Translations under genes and position numbers: made by a program
DNA from: Promethearchaeota archaeon
GTDB lineage: Archaea > Asgardarchaeota > Heimdallarchaeia > Hodarchaeales > Hodarchaeaceae
Direction: 5' to 3'
DNA length: 64,000 nt
Assembly: GCA_048938105.1 (NCBI GenBank)
Contig: JBHLMN010000004.1
Location: 96,001-160,000 of the forward strand
In this document: piece by piece, positions 16,839-35,871 of the stretch
Layout of the letters: each line of letters opens with the position of its first letter
How positions within the stretch are numbered: the first letter of the stretch is position 1
Notes under the pieces: model-generated
What the model was told of the DNA's origin: nothing
Databases searched by the model: none
The model's input: only the letters and a program-made list of their open reading frames with translations

Positions 16839-19628
16839 CTAGTGGAGAGTTTGAGCGAACTGATTGTAATCATCGCCTAAAGGGATCTCCATTCCTTCAA
16901 GAATGTACATGAGAAGAGACCGTGCTCCAAATTTATCCAATTTGGTGTTATTATGACTACAGCGAGGTAGAAATGTGCATTTCGGACATCCTTGAGGATC
17001 TTTACATTCACAAGCCAAAATATCATAAGCTCTGGTGAATAGCTCGGAGAGATGATCCAAAAGCATAGCACAGACTCCTGAACCATTAGCTTGGTCAAAC
17101 AGTAAAACATAGCCTTGGGGAATTAAGGCTAATCCTCCAATTTCACTGAGCTGCCCCCCAATAAAGGGCAGACTAGCGTGGAGAAGGACATGAACCAAGG
17201 TATGCAACGCAGCTCTAAAAGTACTATGATCAGAACCTATAATATCTGTAAAAAGAGTTGGAACCTGAAAAAGGAGGCCTTTGGAATGGGAGGAATAATA
17301 GAGAGGATCACGAAGTCTATTCATGGAAGTACCATTCGGAGACTCTAAAACATAGCCAAAAACCGTCTGAAGGACCTTTGTTTCAACTGATACGACTTCT
17401 AGTCCAAAGACATGATGATGAGTATGGAGGGTCAAGATCTCTGGTTTTAGCGAGGAGAGAGGATAAGTATTTCCCCACACACTCTTTGGCTTGATAAGCT
17501 CTGCTACCCCTCGTATTCCGTTAAAATAAAAACTAATCACTTGATATCGTGTGCCCCCAGAATAATAAAACGCCCCAGGATATAGTTCTAACATAGCAAT
17601 AGGCATCACACGTTTTCCGATTTTTCTTCCCCCACGTATTTTTATCACCACCTCGTGGTTCCTCCCTCGAATCGAATATCTCCGTGCTTGTTCTTGTCCT
17701 TCTTGCGTTGGCAGGAGAATGGATTCATCTACCTGATTCAGAAGATTTTCTGCTACTAATCTACTAAGGATGGGAGCATATTCAGGAAACTCACTCACAT
17801 CAATGGGATGATCGAGGGAGGCACATAGTAACTGGTTTTCTGTGACGTTAGGATTGTCGGGGTCAAAAAATACTTCTTCTATGTCTTGATAATACCGCTT
17901 GGGGTATCGATAATAGTAGTTAGAAATTGGATCTTCGCTATTTAGATGAATGATTGCTACTGCTTCTTGGCCCTTCCGACCTGCCCTTCCGATTCTTTGC
18001 ATAGCACGATTTACTGCAATAGGAGGCGTAATAACAATGTCTAAATCTCCAATATCGATTCCCAATTCAAATGTGGGTGTAGCTACCAATAAATCGATTA
18101 TACTGTCTTTGAAATCAGTTTCAACCTGTTCTCGGATTTTCTTGTCTAGTCCTGCCCGATGGATACCAACTCTTTTTGCAGTCCCTCCCAGCTTCTGATA
18201 TAAGATTTCGGCATTGCGATGCGAGTCTTGAAATACCAACGTCTTACCATGATATTTGATGCTGTTGACAAGACTTGTTACACTATCCAAAGTCGACATT
18301 CCTTCAAAGGGAGCTACCATTAAGAAGTGTAAACGGCCCCGTCGTCCATTCTGACATTCGATTACTGTGATAGGCCGATCGAGCAATTTTGAGGCAAACG
18401 ATTGCGCATTGGCAACTGTAGCTGAGGCTCCAATAAATTGTAGTTTTGTTTGTATTATTCGTTCTAAACGGCGCAATATGAAGTACATGTTTGAGCCAAA
18501 AGTTCCAGTATACGAATGGATTTCATCTAAAATGACGATTTTAAGGCCTGCGAGTAAATCCTGGAAATAACTGCTATTTTTCCCGATTCCTAAGTGATAA
18601 TGCAAAATATCAGGGTTAGTAATCAAAATTTCAGGGGGATCAGCATAGATTTTTTTCCGCCAATAGTGGCTAGTGTCTCCATCAAAGACTCACACTGACA
18701 AGCCTAGAAGGGATGCGAAATCCTCAATTTTCCGAAGTTGATCTTTAGCCAAGGCTTTCATCGGATAGATCAAAAGTAATTGTACTCCACAGTCCTTATA
18801 CTCACGAATCTTGAGTAGTGTTGGAAGAAGGAACGCCTCGGTCTTACCATTCCCTGTGGGGGCAACAATGCACACATCTTGATCCTTTTGAATCATGGTT
18901 ATCGCTTCTTCTTGAAATTGGAAAAAGTGAGTGATTTCCCGTTTCTTTAACGCTTTAACAAGATTAGGGTCGTTTAAAATGTCAATTCTCTTTCCTATCT
19001 CCCCAGGTTGGTTTTCAAACAGACGATAATCAACTATTTGATGCTGTGCAAATTGGATTATTTTTTGGATAGGTGTTGGGAGATCCTTAATGGGAATGTC
19101 AAACCGATTATGGAATTCAGTCAGTGTGATGACACTTTTCGGAGCCTTACTTTGGATAGTCAGTCCATCCTGAAGACCTAGCTCCTGATGAGATGGCAAT
19201 TTTTTCAATTTTCCTGAACTCGCAAGGCGAAGTTCTGTTGCCTTTTGTAGGCAAGCATTTCCCCCCGTCAGGGAATAATATTTTTGTAAACAGAACTCTC
19301 CTTTCCGAACGTCTCTCTGCTTAAAATAGAGTGAAGATAACTGCTTCCATGTTTCCCTATGCGTGTTATTTAATTGTAATATTCGGCCAAACGCCTTCTT
19401 GGCATCACTAATTTGTTTGAATTTCTGAAAGTGATTAGCGATTTCCGTGAGTAACTCAACAGACGGGGTGGGATTCTCTGAAGCTACAATGGCTCTAAAC
19501 TCTGCTAAGATGTCTTCAAGATCACGAAATTCCTGATAATCCTCTATAGCGGAACGATAGCGTGTCCACAAGTTTTTTTTGTTGTCCCCATGAATAGTCA
19601 TGATTTCATCAATGATGATTATTAACAT
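16839..19628 (-). pseudogene. Hrq1/MrfA-like DEAH helicase with DUF1998 Zn domain and N-terminal TPRs, interrupted by one in-frame TGA at 18692-18690 (nonsense mutation, readthrough or sequencing error)
   Basis: Motifs APTGNGKT, YPMKALAKDQ, DEIH, SAT, ATPTFELGIDIG, QRIGRAGR and CECKDPQGCPKC. The frame continues across the stop: LLGLSV*VFDGDTSHYWRKKIYADPPEILITNPD. Confidence 0.85.
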
Positions 19629-28009: not shown

Positions 28010-29752
28010 TCAGCGTAAACCGAATAACCTTTTCATTTTCGCAAAGTAGAGGTCATAGGTATTATATAATGTTTGAAGACTTTGATAAACACGTACTGGT
28101 GGTAACATCGCCCGCATTTTCACTACTCGATAATCTAGAATAAGACTTGCAGCAAAATCCGACTCTGATCTAATTCCTCTCCCAATGGCTTGGGAGATAC
28201 TTCGTGTGACTGGAAGCATAGATATGAGTTTCGCTGTTCGCCACCCCCATTTTTGCTGATACAAAGAGTTGAGTAACCGGTTCGTTGCGTCTGGTCGAGG
28301 AAAGGGGAGTCCTGCTATGATAATCAATGACAATAAGCTTCGATTTGTCTTCGAATCCAGTATTTCAATCCCTTCAGAGAGCTTCCCTCCAATCACCCCA
28401 AATATGAGTTCATGGTTTTTCTCTCTCAATTCATCAATGAAAAAAGGGATTATACCAAGATTTTCGACATACACCTGTGGTATTGAAATATGAGCGAGGA
28501 TTTTTTGTTTCATTTCATGAGATGTGGCAAAGACAATGGTATGAAACGGATTACTGGAGTGCATCCGTTGTATGACGGTAGCCATTGCTTCATATGTTTT
28601 GGCACTTCGTTCAGTGAATTTAGACGTAAATTGACGATGATAAAGTATACCATTCAAACTGAACTGAAAGTCTGAGGGTATTCGAAGCGTAGGATAAGAC
28701 AATCCATATAGTGCCAGATATAGGGATAATGGTGTAAAAGTTCCCGACATCAGGATGACCCGAGTGAAATGCTTGTTCACAAAATCGAATGCTTGATGTG
28801 GGAAAGGATTCAGTTGGAGTAACTTGTTGTCTTCTGATATCCAAATATCTCCTCTTGAAGAAATGAAATCTTTGACTTTTAACAGCTGATTTTTTTCCAT
28901 GAGGGATAATTTGTATTCATGATCCAAGAATGCGTCTAATGCTGCCTCTGACAATGTTCGTGGTCTTTCCACTCTTCCATGATGTGAGCAGATCAACTCC
29001 TGTAACTCATCGATCACTTTTAAGGGGATAATTGTTTGAGCTTTATTTAAATCGTTCGTTGTGATCTCTGTTTCGATATCAGCTGTAAAATTATGCCCCT
29101 CGTCTATAATTGCCATGGTTTGTGGAAAAGAACTGCGTGAAAGAAGCTGGGAGAACATATTTTGAAGATTTTTACTTCGTAAATAGGTGTGTGTGGTAAT
29201 GACTATATTTGAATATGGTATACACCGTTTGATTACATGATAGGGACACCCAAACTCTTTAAACGCCTCTTGAAAAGCCTCAGTCGAAATTGCCTCATCA
29301 TGTGCTGTAATTGGGATTTGTTCGACAATAGCAGGGAAATCTTCCTCTGGAATAGATTTAGTCTGTTCAAGAAAGGGGCATCGTATTTGCCCACAGATCT
29401 TGTGATAGAAGTGGGGGATTTCGTCTCTTTTAATACATAAATCTGCTTTAAGAATGAGAGGAACAGCTGTTAAATAGCCATATTTTCGACTATTTGCGAT
29501 CTTATAAATCTCATTGAGGAATACCTGGAACACTTGTGTCTTCGTTCGAACAAAAATATATAATTGGTAGTTTTTTGATTTTACTAGCGGAAGTGCATGA
29601 ATCAACGCCATAATTGTTTTCCCAAATCCGACTGGGGCATGAATCATTGCTTTTGGATTCTTCTCAACAAATCGGAGAAACTTTGTTTGATAGGCCCGCA
29701 GTTCTGGATGAGGAAAGAGCTGTAGTGCTGGGGGAAGATTAGTATCAATCAT
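28010..29752 (-). CDS. xpd: XPD/Rad3/DinG-family Fe-S helicase
   Basis: Q motif RAYQ, APVGFGKT, four Fe-S Cys (LC..KIC..RCP..GCPY), DEGHN, SGT, SEGIE, GLPFP, QAIGRGIR. An alternative GTG start exists at 29821. Confidence 0.8.
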   Translation of the reverse strand: MIDTNLPPALQLFPHPELRAYQTKFLRFVEKNPKAMIHAPVGFGKTIMALIHALPLVKSKNYQLYIFVRTKTQVFQVFLNEIYKIANSRKYGYLTAVPLILKADLCIKRDEIPHFYHKICGQIRCPFLEQTKSIPEEDFPAIVEQIPITAHDEAISTEAFQEAFKEFGCPYHVIKRCIPYSNIVITTHTYLRSKNLQNMFSQLLSRSSFPQTMAIIDEGHNFTADIETEITTNDLNKAQTIIPLKVIDELQELICSHHGRVERPRTLSEAALDAFLDHEYKLSLMEKNQLLKVKDFISSRGDIWISEDNKLLQLNPFPHQAFDFVNKHFTRVILMSGTFTPLSLYLALYGLSYPTLRIPSDFQFSLNGILYHRQFTSKFTERSAKTYEAMATVIQRMHSSNPFHTIVFATSHEMKQKILAHISIPQVYVENLGIIPFFIDELREKNHELIFGVIGGKLSEGIEILDSKTNRSLLSLIIIAGLPFPRPDATNRLLNSLYQQKWGWRTAKLISMLPVTRSISQAIGRGIRSESDFAASLILDYRVVKMRAMLPPVRVYQSLQTLYNTYDLYFAKMKRLFGLR

Positions 29753-29795
29753 GGTGTTTCCACAGAGAATTTGTGGTAGACATTTCTGGAGGTAG

Positions 29796-30818
29796 TTATT
29801 TGGAATTAAAGTCTCGGACACCCTCGCTGGTAATTGCGAACTCTACTTTCCCATCAGGAAATTCAGGGCTTTTTGTTAATGAGGCAGTTCGTTTGGTTGC
29901 TTTCCCCTTTCGGATGAATATCCGAGTAGTAACCGTATGACCTACAATATTGCCTCCAACAGGCTTATTTGGATCCCCAAAAAATATCGCGTCAGGTTTG
30001 GCGGATACTTGGTTCGTCACGAGACCAATACAATTCATTATTTCAGCCTGTTTAGCAATAAACGCTAAATGTCTCCCAATCAGTTGTTGTCGTTCTGCCA
30101 GTGTTCCACGTCCCACGAACTCACTTCTGAAATGTGACATGAGGGAGTCTACAATTATCAGACCAACGTTTGGAACCATAGTAAGTGCCTCTTCGGTGAG
30201 TGCCATTTGGTGTTCACTATTGTAAGCTCTACCAACCGTAATTCGTGAAAGTACGGTGTCTGGATCTATATCTAATGCCTAAGCTATTTGTACTATTCGA
30301 TTAAAGCGGAATATTCCTTCTGAGTCGATCCAAATCACATCTCGGTCGAGGTATTTAACGCAATTAACTGCCAATTGGTGGGCAATCTGGGTCTTTCCAC
30401 AGCCATTCTCACCAGCGATTTCCGTGACACTTCCCGTTTCAAATCCTCCCCCTATGAGTTCATTGAACGTTTTTGATCCTGTCGTTAATTTTATCCGTGT
30501 TTTTGCTGCTTCCTCGTAATCTGTCCCTTTTTTTAATCCAAGGTCAAACTGTGCTCTTGCTTCACGGATTAGATGAGCTGCAGTTTTCTCCGCAATTCCC
30601 GAAATTTCAGTTAATTGAGCCCGTGTTGCTAGAGCTATCGCTTCTTTGCTTCCATAACCCGCAGTTTCTAGTCGTTGTCTTGTCGTGGGGCCAACGCCTG
30701 TTATTGTTTCTAAGAATGGTTTCTCTGAGGTTGTGTCCTTTTTCTTAACTTTCTTTGTCCTTTTCTCTTCAATTGGCTCAGAACTAATTCCTTCGTCTTT
30801 TGTTTCGACTTTTGCCAT
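29796..30818 (-). pseudogene. radA: RadA recombinase paralog interrupted by one in-frame TAG at 30281-30279 (340 aa if read through)
   Basis: HhH GVGPTT, Walker A GENGCGKT, IVDS, FRSEFVGRGTLAERQQ, TNQV. The frame continues across the stop: RIVQIA*ALDIDPDTVLSRITVGRAYNSEHQM. Confidence 0.9.
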
Positions 30819-30890
30819 CGTTTTTCACTTTATTCTTTTTTCTAGCTATATTGTTGTAAACCTTTGATCTGATTATGATTTAGCTCCCTG

Positions 30891-31004
30891 CCTTTTTATA
30901 CTCAAAATCACCAATTTTTCGAATTTCTAGTACAAAAATATAATTCTCATTCTTACCTTATATATTCAAAATCGATGGGAGAATAGATTTCTAGTATAAA
31001 AGAG
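30891..31004. promoter_or_regulatory. Tandemly duplicated back-to-back promoter module (four motif copies) between radA and the large surface-protein gene
   Basis: Minus-strand copies at 30891-30909 and 30956-30973; plus-strand copies at 30922-30940 and 30986-31004. Both pairs have a 12-nt spacer. Confidence 0.7.
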
Positions 31005-31056: not shown

Positions 31057-34000
31057 ATGAGTCAAATCTCAAGAATAAATCAAGAAAAAATAATTGGCTT
31101 TTGGCTTTTAACAAGTATTTATCTTGTTATCATTCTGATTGCTATTACTCCTGGCATAGCCACACCATTAAAGACATCAACAACCCTTCTCTCTGATATT
31201 GGGGCTGCAGGACTTGATGACACGATTCAATTCACAATTTTTGTTTATACAGGTTTTGACCCTGTCCCAACTGGTGTTGTTCGTATAATTGATACCAATA
31301 CAAGTGAATACATTGATACCACTATTCTAGGTGGGGAAGCAAAAGTTAATTGGACAGTTTTTGAGCCTTTCATAGAAGGGGTTCATGTCTTTAAGGCCAA
31401 CTATCAAGGATTTTTAGATTACTCCCCTTCATCTGGCATATGCAGTATTTATTTTGATGAATTTACTCCTGGGAGTTCTCGTACAACGACTATCACGCTC
31501 AATAGTAATTCTACTGTAGTTTTTAAGAACTCATCTGTCCGATTCACCGTTGAACTCGAAATTATTAATTCTGTTCAACCCTACTTCAAGGGGGGATATA
31601 TTTATGTTAAGAACAATAATCTTAGCGGATCGCCTATGATCCATACTTATGGACCACTCCCTCTAGACCCTTCTGCTCTCTTAACCTACTCCTTCGATTA
31701 TCAGATCCCTATCTTTTCCCCAGTAGGGATCAATGCGTTTTTTGTGGAATATACTGGAAGTTCGCAATCCCAAACAAAACCTTGCACTTCCTCTCATCAC
31801 AATATAACAGTTCTAAGTACAGGTTTCTGGTTAGATCAATCAATAGATCAAGTTGACCTTCAACGCGAAGAGAGTACATTAGAACTAAACACAACAATAC
31901 TGGGAGATAATCCCATAGGATTAGAATTAAAGATGTACTCTTCCCTCAATGACCAAAAATTCATCATAGATGATCGTATTCTCGAATCACGGAATGTAAT
32001 AACGTATTTCTTACCTAATAGTTCAGTACCCGTAGGTATTCTTTCAATAATTACCGAGTTAATCGACCCAAGTACCAAAACTCAATATACAAACACAACT
32101 ACGGCTGTATCAATCATAGATTATGCTCGAATTGACCATTCAGAGAATGCGACTCAATATCGGCACAATGAAAGTATTCGCATCGAAGCTTACATCACTG
32201 AACAGGATGTCTGGACTCACCCAGTTGTCACTACTGTGGAATTACAGGATGTCACCGATGGTAATCGTTCATTAATCAATAAAACGACTAATCAGGATGG
32301 ATTCGTGGTGATCGATTACCCCATTCCTGATAATGCAACGGTTGGAAATCATAAATTTAGTCTAACAACTCATAATACCAACAAGTTCATTTTAGATATT
32401 ACAGAGACCTTCCTCATTCCCATTAAGGGTATAACTGAAATCGACGTAACTTATGAGAGTGGTGGAGTGGACAGGAATGAAATTACTCTTATAGAAGCGA
32501 CTGTTCTTTCAGGAGGAGTGGCAATCAGCGAGGGTTTGATAGTGTTAGAGTTTGCCATCAATGACTCTGTTATTGAAACACGGGATTGTGAACCTGGTCT
32601 GGAATTTGAGTATTTCATTGAACCTTCGCATCCGAGGGGTATTATGGAATATCAGATTCATTTTCTCGGATCTTACAATTACGATGAGCATGTCGAACCT
32701 ATTGACCTGCCAGTCTTCTCAAACCCTACATTTAGTACATCAGGCCAAAACGCGTCGGAAGTCATTAAAGGACACACTGTGCGTATTTGGGGCCGATTAG
32801 TGGATGAAATTGGCCAACCTGTGTGTTATGAAGAAATCGAGTTGACTGATACTACTATTGGCACGTTTCTTGGTACTAGTGTAACTGACGATCAAGGCCT
32901 GTTCTTTTACGACTATTTCATCTCCCAGTCCACTCAGATCGGAGTTCATTTCGTTGAGATAACCTATTCAGGCAACATTTTAGAATTCTATCGTGCGTCA
33001 ACAAACAACCCTCTCAAAAGTATCACTGTGAGACCTCCGTTGTCTGTCATGATTGAAGCTGAGGTGGTTGCAAATCACTGGACGATTATTTCTCTAGAAG
33101 GAGGATTAAATGATGATATCCTCTTAGAATGGCAAAAATATGGTGAAATAGACTGGAGTTATTTGGGTGTCGTTGTACTCAATTCTTCAGGTCGGGGGCT
33201 GTATAACTGGTCTACTCCCTATTATAAAGGTGAATTTGCCATTCGGGCAACAGGCCCCAATAGTACAAAATATGACTTCTCTACCATGTATGCTATCCCT
33301 TACATTACAGTGGCGGGGGATGAAATTGGTAATGTTAACGATCCTTACCTTTTTACAGTCAATTCAGCGGAAAAATATCAAATATGGATAAGCGAGCAAC
33401 TTTGGCAGGACTGGCGTGAAGCAGGAATTCATCAGTACGACTATATTTTTACAGGTCGAGGATTACGAGGCATCACTATCGTTAGTAACGATACCTATAC
33501 CTACTATCAAGAATATCATCATAACATTGCTATATATGAAGATGTATTTGTTACTCTTTCAGCACCTTTAGAAGCATTCGTGAATCTCTCGATAAATTTA
33601 GATGGTACTGTGATCGGGGAGGTATCGGGTCCAATAGAGGGTATGGATGCTACTTTAGTGGTCAATGGTACTGACCTACAAGTTGACTCCACCAGTGGTG
33701 CTGGACATTATTATTTCTCAGTAGTATTCGAAGATCCAGGTAACTACAAACTTATGGTAAAGACTCCTTCTAGTGATACTACATTTTATTGCGCTTCTTT
33801 TAGTGAGGAATCAAATATCTTCATCAATTCTATTCCTGCTGACTTCGACATTTTAAGTCCCTTAAATCAGACATATGGAGCTATTGTGGAGGTATCCATT
33901 GTTGGAGATGCTGAAAATTATTGGTATTGCATTGAACCAATTGATATAACTAATATCTCTTGGTTTACTCCGATTTATCGAACTCTGCCTGAAGGTAATT

Positions 34001-35871
34001 ATACTTGCCATGTCTATGGGCAAAACAATTATGGGATTGTTTCGCATATTTACTCCCCATTTATTGTTGACACAACCGCTCCATCATTAATATTGACTAG
34101 TCCAAGAAACACAACTTATACCATTAATGATATTTCAATTTCATATCTAACAGATGAAAATGAAGTATTAGTTGTGCTAGATGATGTGGAATTAGAGGGT
34201 GTTAGCTCGGGTACACTACTTTCTGGTTTGGCTGAGGGTGTCCATAACTTAACAATCTTAGCTTACGATCAAGTTGGTAACATGGTCGATCGAATAGCCT
34301 TGTTTAGAGTGGATACAGTTCCCCCCAGTCTAGAAATTAGTTCACCTTACAATCAAAGCTATACTACCGAAATTGAAATCATATTGAGATCAAATGGGAG
34401 TACTGTTCTCTATTATATTCCTACAGTCCATAAATATAATCAAACCTATACAGACCCAATATCTCTTAATCTTTCGATTGGTAAGTATATACTCCAAGTT
34501 TATGCATTTGATGATGCAGGGAACACTTGTACAGGGTCTGTTGCTTTTTCTATTGTCCAAACCATCGAATTACTAATTAATCCTAAATGCAAAGATGTCG
34601 ATGGGGCTGGAAATTACGAAATCTCCACCCAAATAATGAGTCATCCAAATTTTGATTTAGTAGGGATCTACCTCAATGGCACTTATTTAGGAAGTTTAAA
34701 CTGGAGTTACTTATACCAAGATTATCGTTTATCTTTTCAACTTGAGCGTCCTGGTCTTTGGCAGCTTACTCTCTTTGCCAAAACTACCCTAGAAGAGTAT
34801 GATTTTCATTATTTCGAGATTGAGTGGAATCCCCCTGTTCCTCTGTTTAAATCAGTATCAGTAGCATTTGATTCATCACAGTATGAGGTTCGTGCGCAAA
34901 TTGATACAGGAGTCCTCTCTCTAGACAGAGTTTTACTTTTTGTGAATGATACATCCTATCCCTTGACATATTCACCTTTTGGGGATCGCTGGGTAGTTAA
35001 TATCCCTGTTCATCCAAAGAACGACACTTTGATCTTTTATACTTGGTACAAATGGGATGAGTTACCTTCAGCTCACTACGAGCATTATATCTCTTGGTTT
35101 GCTCCTAGTATCATCCTTGAAGAGTCCATTATTCGAAGAGAGAATTTCTCGCTTAGTATTAGAATTGAGAAACAAAATGCCTCAATTGTTACTCAATCTG
35201 TAAAATTACTAATCATTAATGGTTCTTCTGAAATTGATGTGGTAGGAAACCTTGTGTACGAGTCTGTAACGGGAAGTTACCAACAGTGGGAATTTAACTC
35301 TCCTAATCTCCCTCCTAGGATTTGGAATTATAGAATCAAGGTCAGAGATATTTATGGTTCTCAACGGGTTCTTAATCTGATATTTAATGCCACGGATCTT
35401 CCACCCCAATTCGGAAATAGCGCTGCTTTTCTCGTTTCTCGTTACACAGCAGGAGAGTTATGGCAGATTGAGGTCGCTGCAAGTGATGATTACCAAATTG
35501 AGAGAGTTATTTTATATGTTGATGGAATTGATAAAACCTCAACCACTAACAATGATACACACTTTGTCTTCCAAGTTTGGTTGACTGAAGGAGTACACAG
35601 TCTTCAAGTGGCTGCTTATGATGATATTGGTCAAAAAAATACTTTAGATCTCCCTTCGATTGAAGTGATTCTTATTCCTTCCACAACATCATCAACCACT
35701 CCTATTGAGACTCGTACTTCTGACTCTTCTTTCCCTAGAAATACCAATTCGTCGACAACTAGTAATAGTGACGAAGAAGCTGATGGTCTTATTACTCTTG
35801 GTTTTGCAGGGAGTATTGTTGGAGGAATAGTTATGGTTGGAAATATCGTGGCACGAAAGAGGCGGGATTGA
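31057..35871 (+). CDS. 1604-aa surface protein with multiple Ig-like domains and a C-terminal membrane anchor
   Basis: Signal peptide; Ig-like signatures (ANYQGFLDYSPS, DTTAPSLILTSP, GVHNLTILAYDQVGN); S/T linker, TM and RKRR tail. Confidence 0.8.
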   Translation: MSQISRINQEKIIGFWLLTSIYLVIILIAITPGIATPLKTSTTLLSDIGAAGLDDTIQFTIFVYTGFDPVPTGVVRIIDTNTSEYIDTTILGGEAKVNWTVFEPFIEGVHVFKANYQGFLDYSPSSGICSIYFDEFTPGSSRTTTITLNSNSTVVFKNSSVRFTVELEIINSVQPYFKGGYIYVKNNNLSGSPMIHTYGPLPLDPSALLTYSFDYQIPIFSPVGINAFFVEYTGSSQSQTKPCTSSHHNITVLSTGFWLDQSIDQVDLQREESTLELNTTILGDNPIGLELKMYSSLNDQKFIIDDRILESRNVITYFLPNSSVPVGILSIITELIDPSTKTQYTNTTTAVSIIDYARIDHSENATQYRHNESIRIEAYITEQDVWTHPVVTTVELQDVTDGNRSLINKTTNQDGFVVIDYPIPDNATVGNHKFSLTTHNTNKFILDITETFLIPIKGITEIDVTYESGGVDRNEITLIEATVLSGGVAISEGLIVLEFAINDSVIETRDCEPGLEFEYFIEPSHPRGIMEYQIHFLGSYNYDEHVEPIDLPVFSNPTFSTSGQNASEVIKGHTVRIWGRLVDEIGQPVCYEEIELTDTTIGTFLGTSVTDDQGLFFYDYFISQSTQIGVHFVEITYSGNILEFYRASTNNPLKSITVRPPLSVMIEAEVVANHWTIISLEGGLNDDILLEWQKYGEIDWSYLGVVVLNSSGRGLYNWSTPYYKGEFAIRATGPNSTKYDFSTMYAIPYITVAGDEIGNVNDPYLFTVNSAEKYQIWISEQLWQDWREAGIHQYDYIFTGRGLRGITIVSNDTYTYYQEYHHNIAIYEDVFVTLSAPLEAFVNLSINLDGTVIGEVSGPIEGMDATLVVNGTDLQVDSTSGAGHYYFSVVFEDPGNYKLMVKTPSSDTTFYCASFSEESNIFINSIPADFDILSPLNQTYGAIVEVSIVGDAENYWYCIEPIDITNISWFTPIYRTLPEGNYTCHVYGQNNYGIVSHIYSPFIVDTTAPSLILTSPRNTTYTINDISISYLTDENEVLVVLDDVELEGVSSGTLLSGLAEGVHNLTILAYDQVGNMVDRIALFRVDTVPPSLEISSPYNQSYTTEIEIILRSNGSTVLYYIPTVHKYNQTYTDPISLNLSIGKYILQVYAFDDAGNTCTGSVAFSIVQTIELLINPKCKDVDGAGNYEISTQIMSHPNFDLVGIYLNGTYLGSLNWSYLYQDYRLSFQLERPGLWQLTLFAKTTLEEYDFHYFEIEWNPPVPLFKSVSVAFDSSQYEVRAQIDTGVLSLDRVLLFVNDTSYPLTYSPFGDRWVVNIPVHPKNDTLIFYTWYKWDELPSAHYEHYISWFAPSIILEESIIRRENFSLSIRIEKQNASIVTQSVKLLIINGSSEIDVVGNLVYESVTGSYQQWEFNSPNLPPRIWNYRIKVRDIYGSQRVLNLIFNATDLPPQFGNSAAFLVSRYTAGELWQIEVAASDDYQIERVILYVDGIDKTSTTNNDTHFVFQVWLTEGVHSLQVAAYDDIGQKNTLDLPSIEVILIPSTTSSTTPIETRTSDSSFPRNTNSSTTSNSDEEADGLITLGFAGSIVGGIVMVGNIVARKRRD

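Follow-up and report, generated by a model that had tools for sequence, protein, structure and literature searches.

The window analysed here is the whole stretch of 64,000 nucleotides taken from a metagenome-assembled genome (MAG) of the Hodarchaeales (5.85 Mb in 65 contigs, 99% complete, 7% contamination). A gene of the radA family lies on its minus strand at 29796-30818. Translation gave a single frame of 340 codons plus the terminal stop, and the sole break in this frame is a TAG at codon 180 (30279-30281, minus strand, plus-strand letters 'cta'). The translation around the stop is ...NRIVQIA*ALDIDPDTVLSRITVGRAYNSEHQM..., and the longer readout across it is ...FRFNRIVQIA*ALDIDPDTVLSRITVGRAYNSEHQMALTEE.... 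A preliminary description of this DNA had reported two RadA open reading frames (ORFs) in one frame with a single TAG, and translation of the minus strand reproduced this. Between the TAG and the next ATG (M205) there are 24 codons. They had been described as a conserved RadA segment, which the RadA alignment confirmed. The stop stands in a variable column, occupied by E, K or Q in the 24 aligned RadA proteins, in agreement with the earlier remark that this position is often K or E.

The identity of the gene is clear on both sides of the stop. With the stop written as X, the Pfam family Rad51 (PF08423) matched straight through it (E 7.2e-70, residues 107-336, profile positions 4-243 of 244), and the N-terminal helix-hairpin-helix domain (HhH; PF14520, HHH_5) was matched at residues 36-88 (E 4.5e-13). 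The closest solved structure is the Rad51/RadA of P. furiosus (1PZN, E 1.8e-83). The best database relatives are full-length proteins of 339-340 aa with 80-92% identity, which their sources label as RadA of Hodarchaeales or Heimdallarchaeota. Walker A (GENGCGKT, residues 136-143, minus strand 30390-30413) lies 5' of the stop and keeps the invariant G136, E137 and K142. The Walker B strand (LIIVDS, residues 220-225, minus strand 30144-30161) lies 3' of the stop and keeps the invariant L220, I222 and D224. Both ATPase motifs of the family are thus present in the frame, but the TAG falls between them and the frame over the two halves of the ATPase core is interrupted. Since Walker B is 3' of the stop, it is absent from any product made without readthrough.

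The ATG that follows the stop after 24 codons allows two ORFs to be called, and residues 1-179 and M205-340 could be regarded as two separate functional products of a deliberately split gene. However, the break lies within the ATPase core, and the 24 conserved RadA codons would belong to neither product. No split ortholog was found, and the gene is whole in a strain that differs from the window at 2 of 778 bases. We consider the chance that the gene is split by design to be practically negligible.

An XPD/Rad3-type helicase gene (28010-29821, minus strand; Pfam DEAD_2 and Helicase_C_2) is located directly downstream of radA. Within flanks of 1.5 kb, a helicase of this type adjoins the radA ortholog in 6 of 11 congener loci. 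Divergently upstream of radA, at 31057-35871 on the plus strand, is the gene for a large surface protein of 1604 aa. The protein has a membrane anchor at the N terminus, and at the C terminus a Ser/Thr-rich stretch precedes a transmembrane segment. This gene is syntenic in 10 congeners, with 42-76% identity over the first 300 residues. Five further ORFs in the 13-28 kb part of the window have no Pfam match.

The window copy is one of four full-length RadA-type genes detected in the genome by tblastn. The other three are intact, canonical RadA paralogs (G000:C41:166313-167317, C52:27868-28815 and C11:33791-34759), and a shorter RadB-like gene is found at G000:C11:140539-141243. The three paralogs are 65-71% identical to one another and 41-45% identical to the window copy, and against a reference archaeal RadA they score slightly above it. 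Their motifs are canonical: F-x-x-A is present, and Walker A has the form GE(F/Y)RTGKTQ, as in eukaryotic Rad51. The same set of four RadA-type genes exists in a closed congener genome (G009), which shows that the paralogs belong to the genome and do not stem from contamination. Two to four such genes are present in most of the congeners searched. A second intact copy of the window gene, from another strain in the bin, was considered and rejected, as tblastn returned only paralogs at 37-45% identity.

The window clade departs from canonical RadA in its motifs. Its Walker A has diverged to GENGCGKT, unlike the GEF(G/R)(S/T)GKT of the RadA references and the paralogs. It also has L-K-K-G/A at the presumed position of the F-x-x-A polymerisation motif, judging from RadA structures. 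In other respects the window copy is like archaeal RadA and eukaryotic Rad51-Dmc1 (PF08423; 1PZN and Methanococcus voltae 1T4G), with an HhH domain and a RecA-fold ATPase bearing Walker A and B. It keeps the conserved GRAYNS, HFR.E..GRG..A.RQQ and TNQV motifs, and it is about 50% identical to reference archaeal RadA. Unlike the reference proteins, it has the TAG at codon 180 and an Ile at residue 169. Matsuo et al. (2025, Genome Biol Evol, PMC12722695) reported two RadA clades side by side in individual MAGs from the Heimdall, Njord, Gerd and Loki groups. The window genome is similar in having two kinds of RadA, the window copy and the three paralogs; the likeness lies in the presence of two kinds and assigns the window copy to neither published clade. 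That paper contains no description of disrupted copies.

The preliminary description had called radA otherwise intact, with no other lesion visible. The first part holds insofar as the TAG is the sole frame break and no frameshift exists. The second part failed, since a window-specific substitution affects an invariant residue. Codon 169 (30312-30314, minus strand) is ATA (Ile) and replaces the invariant Thr (ACN) of the E-G-T-F-R motif. All 24 other RadA proteins of the alignment have Thr169, among them Thermoplasma RadA and one labelled Methanomethylophilaceae, as do both best PDB matches at the corresponding position (the P. furiosus and Methanococcus structures). In the family motif D-(T/S)-E-(G/N)-T-F-R, the window copy therefore lacks the invariant Thr. 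The change from ACA to ATA is a C-to-T substitution 32 bases upstream of the stop mutation. Apart from T169I and the stop, the window copy departs from the clade consensus at 3 positions, all conservative.

The assembled contigs (not raw reads) of four public runs were compared over 29700-30900. In the probable source run, a single Logan contig with a word depth of 15.2 showed 0 differences from the window over 1201 bases, and no alternative contig from this run covered the stretch. A different assembler (Logan) thus reproduced the TAG, although this contig shares reads with the MAG and is not independent at the read level. The other three runs were a second sample of the source study (X2) and samples of two other studies (X3 and X4). 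At plus-strand position 30281, the probable source run has A and X2, X3 and X4 all have C, that is, TAG versus GAG. At 30313, the window has A and the same three runs have G, that is, ATA (Ile) versus ACA (Thr). The X2 contig differs from the window at 2 of 778 bases, exactly these two positions. Across X2-X4 there are 16 other variable sites, of which 15 are synonymous and 1 is an Asp/Glu exchange. This indicates that purifying selection acts on the gene across the wider population. The window has only two private changes, the E180 stop and T169I, and both are damaging. Of the conservative departures from the clade consensus, those at codons 235 and 264 are species-level changes, since the contigs of the other runs cover both codons and show no difference there. 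The TAG is a single step from GAG (Glu), a G-to-T substitution on the coding strand, and the near-identical contigs of the three other runs bear out the earlier suggestion of a recent nonsense mutation.

A consensus error had also been proposed, in which the organism truly has GAG and the TAG arises from the reads or from polishing. The genome is a MAG with an estimated 7% contamination, the TAG appears only in the probable source run while every other run has GAG, and the closeness of two window-specific changes, within 33 bases, could point to sequence that is poor locally. The contig-level evidence may be compatible with GAG as a minority allele in the source sample, or with reads that err systematically. 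On the other hand, the Logan assembly is identical over the 1201 bases at depth 15.2 without an alternative contig, and substitution errors rarely win the consensus at such a word depth. A nonsense codon in a helicase gene of the window and the other domain-spanning stops of this genome, described below, fit a real mutational load as well as they fit error. We believe that an error at the stop is very unlikely.

The sister species support a strain-specific change. Forty related genomes were searched, and orthologs with at least 71% identity were found in 15 of the 20 congeners. No internal stop was found in these 15 orthologs; one TAG was flagged in the window genome only. In the 11 sister loci read, the codon at the stop column is GAG, GAA, CAA, AAA or AAG, a sense codon in every case, and codon 169 is always ACN. 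The preliminary description had held that sense codons in the orthologs would argue against programmed readthrough and for a strain-specific loss, and this is what the 11 loci show. In the remaining 5 congeners, the window query gave only paralog-level matches, and one of these genomes is 93% complete. The window RadA clade may thus be dispensable in some species, although genome incompleteness weakens this point.

Pyrrolysine recoding of TAG is known in archaea, including Asgard lineages (Sun et al. 2021, PMC9723677). The window gene is similar to such cases in that an in-frame TAG lies in a gene of an Asgard archaeon. Unlike them, it lies in a genome in which PylS, PylB and tRNA-Pyl were not found, and its orthologs have Glu, Lys or Gln codons instead of TAG. 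The best match to PylS (TIGR02367) in the whole 99%-complete genome scored 23.2 bits against a cut-off of 178, which the Methanosarcina control passed. The best match to PylB (TIGR03910) in the whole genome scored 54.9 bits against a cut-off of 348. These sub-cut-off matches are generic class-II synthetase and radical-SAM proteins. SepSecS was not found either: a whole-genome search gave only short matches to PLP enzymes, at or just under the cut-off. TAG terminates 650 of 3456 open frames of at least 200 codons (19%) and makes up 48 of the 254 stops with long open frames on both sides (19%), with no TAG-specific excess. A genome-wide reassignment of TAG is contradicted by this stop-codon usage and by the split-frame counts.

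Without introns allowed, ARAGORN found no CUA, UCA or UUA tRNA in the whole genome. In intron mode it gave one 'tRNA-Pyl(CUA)' at C11:135861-135970. Rfam places the same tRNA at C11:135862-135968 (48.8 bits), and it is a real tRNA. Its body is of the Gln type, with A1-U72 and an acceptor stem nearly that of the tRNA-Gln(CUG) and tRNA-Gln(UUG) of the genome. The two halves of the anticodon stem are separated by 41 bases, and a canonical bulge-helix-bulge places the intron at 37/38. The central helix is CUCU/GGCG with one mismatch, and the bulges are GG-A and AA-A, the hyphen marking the cut. The spliced loop is CUCUGGA (joined as CUCUGG-A), which gives the anticodon CUG. The 37/38 arrangement is common to six congeners, and in several of them the inner helix has compensating changes. 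The supposed suppressor was rejected on its sequence, the Rfam match, the bulge-helix-bulge geometry and a comparison of ten orthologs, and is a tRNA-Gln(CUG). The Gln-type body and the canonical 37/38 intron that yields CUG leave the window genome without a credible amber suppressor. This intron-bearing third Gln-type tRNA is one of two tRNA-Gln(CUG) genes in the genome. The search for pyl genes or suppressor tRNAs that the preliminary description had suggested thus came out against recoding, with PylS and PylB far under their cut-offs and the sole CUA call reading CUG.

ARAGORN calls only 15-20 tRNAs in the whole genome, and most tRNA genes of this genome probably carry introns. The tRNA-Gln(UUG) (G000:C42, minus strand, reverse-complement 76774-76880) has about 35 extra bases inserted in its D-arm region and was missed by ARAGORN. 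This insert is at a non-canonical intron position.

Functional readthrough would mean that a suppressor tRNA or near-cognate tRNA-Gln(CUG) reads the TAG, and that a reduced amount of full-length RadA serves as a dosage switch. The intron-mode label of the tRNA above, the CUA anticodon read in its positional orthologs of three sister species, and the tolerance of residue 180 for E, K and Q speak for it. It is also favoured by the ability of near-cognate tRNA-Gln, Tyr and Lys in yeast to insert at UAG (PMC4150775). Against these points, the 37/38 intron gives CUG in the window genome and in six congeners, with a covarying inner helix. Neither PylS nor PylB was found in the genome, and TAG is a normal terminator there. 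Programmed readthrough would lead one to expect a conserved stop, but neither the orthologs nor the near-identical strains have it; 3 of 3 other runs have a sense codon. The context UAG-GCA-UUA matches no known leaky context. A full-length product would moreover still carry Ile at the invariant Thr169. Programmed readthrough acting as a switch, one of the options first proposed, is thus not borne out, and we regard functional readthrough in general as highly improbable. A related idea is that the TAG allele is not null. Near-cognate decoding by the two tRNA-Gln(CUG) genes would then yield a little full-length RadA, and across the genus amber alleles would be tolerated low-dosage variants; we give this scarcely any credence.

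The third Gln-type tRNA has orthologs at G002:C10:37765-37873 (L021), G004:C135:18617-18724 (L022, minus strand) and G005:C175:5085-5189 (L023, minus strand), with conserved flanking genes. These three read UUCUAU, then the intron, then A or G. Their bulge-helix-bulge geometry is canonical and gives the anticodon CUA with an unusual U37, and two of them have a perfect central helix (UUCU/AGAA). The intron has diverged, in contrast to the conserved tRNA body. Genome G002 also has normal tRNA-Gln(CUG) and tRNA-Gln(UUG) genes. TAG terminates 22-27% of the long ORFs in G002 and G004 (92-133 kb sampled). Judging from sequence, the third Gln-type tRNA of G002, G004 and G005 is a candidate natural amber suppressor in Hodarchaeales, one that is absent from the window genome.

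The window contains a second broken gene. A MrfA/Hrq1-type helicase gene (16842-19628, minus strand, 929 codons; Pfam DEAD, Helicase_C and MZB) has one in-frame TGA at codon 313 (18690-18692), where nine congeners have CGA, AGA or AAA. It adds a second nonsense codon that is specific to this genome, again in a DNA-repair gene, and lies 11.6 kb away from radA. Conserved in-frame stops in this helicase were considered and rejected: the stops flagged in six congeners lie upstream of the start codon, and the internal TGA occurs in the window genome only. PF01941, the archaeal-type S-adenosylmethionine synthase, had no match in the 99%-complete genome, and four archaeal control genomes matched.

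Broken genes were also counted genome-wide. A dicodon coding score gave 42-119 candidates, a count that is unreliable on its own because, in the Pfam check, most pairs with informative domains were merely adjacent genes. For this check, 20 same-frame ORF pairs were sampled from the genome and compared with Pfam. A single Pfam domain spanned the stop in four pairs. Three of these stops are TGA, in an amine oxidase (L065, C6:395444-396565), a metallophosphoesterase (L072, C39:91997-93184) and an AAT/Ntn-type hydrolase (L074, C42:241154-242161), and the fourth is a TAG in a TnpB gene (L067, C20:54059-55372). Nine pairs were clearly adjacent genes (5 TAA, 2 TGA, 2 TAG) and seven were uninformative. 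No domain spanned the stop in any of the 8 TAA pairs. With the helicase included, this small sample counts four genes broken by TGA and none broken by TAA, in a genome that is rich in AT. Since several single-stop disruptions exist in this genome, the radA TAG appears as one of a set of ordinary lesions.

In this study, we believe that a recent, strain-specific G-to-T nonsense mutation, together with T169I, has very probably inactivated a lineage-specific RadA paralog. On this reading, in the population of one sediment sample, the G-to-T change turned Glu180 (GAG) into an amber stop, and a C-to-T change turned the invariant Thr169 into Ile. Translation would then end after residue 179. The fragment would keep the HhH N-terminal domain and Walker A and, judging from the architecture of the family, would be without Walker B, the DNA-binding loops L1 and L2 and the greater part of the ATPase core. 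It would presumably be inactive as a recombinase. The absence of a frameshift and of almost any further decay indicates that the event is young. Any order assigned to the E180 stop and T169I in the allele would be conjectural, and a statistical demonstration of relaxed selection would need more than two mutations. Purifying selection in the other strains means that the gene is not freely dispensable. We infer that this strain tolerates the loss, probably through its three intact, more canonical RadA paralogs and the RadB-like gene.

The case resembles ordinary prokaryotic nonsense pseudogenes and polymorphic loss-of-function alleles: a single-base stop in one strain, intact genes in its sisters, and no recoding machinery found. 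Nothing sets the window radA apart from this class, and it is notable only as an Asgard recombinase paralog. We read the TAG as the product of ordinary decay of the gene and see in it neither a recoding signal nor a switch. The two radA ORFs should be annotated as one disrupted radA-family gene, neither as two genes nor as a recoded one. The case cautions against taking a single in-frame stop in a MAG for recoding, and the intron mode of ARAGORN can mislabel an intron-bearing tRNA-Gln as tRNA-Pyl. Overall, one of the recombinase paralogs of an uncultured Asgard archaeon has a polymorphic and very probably loss-of-function allele, which is of little significance in itself. It hints that the lineage-specific RadA clade may be conditionally dispensable where canonical paralogs are present, which would bear slightly on the division of work among Asgard recombinase paralogs.
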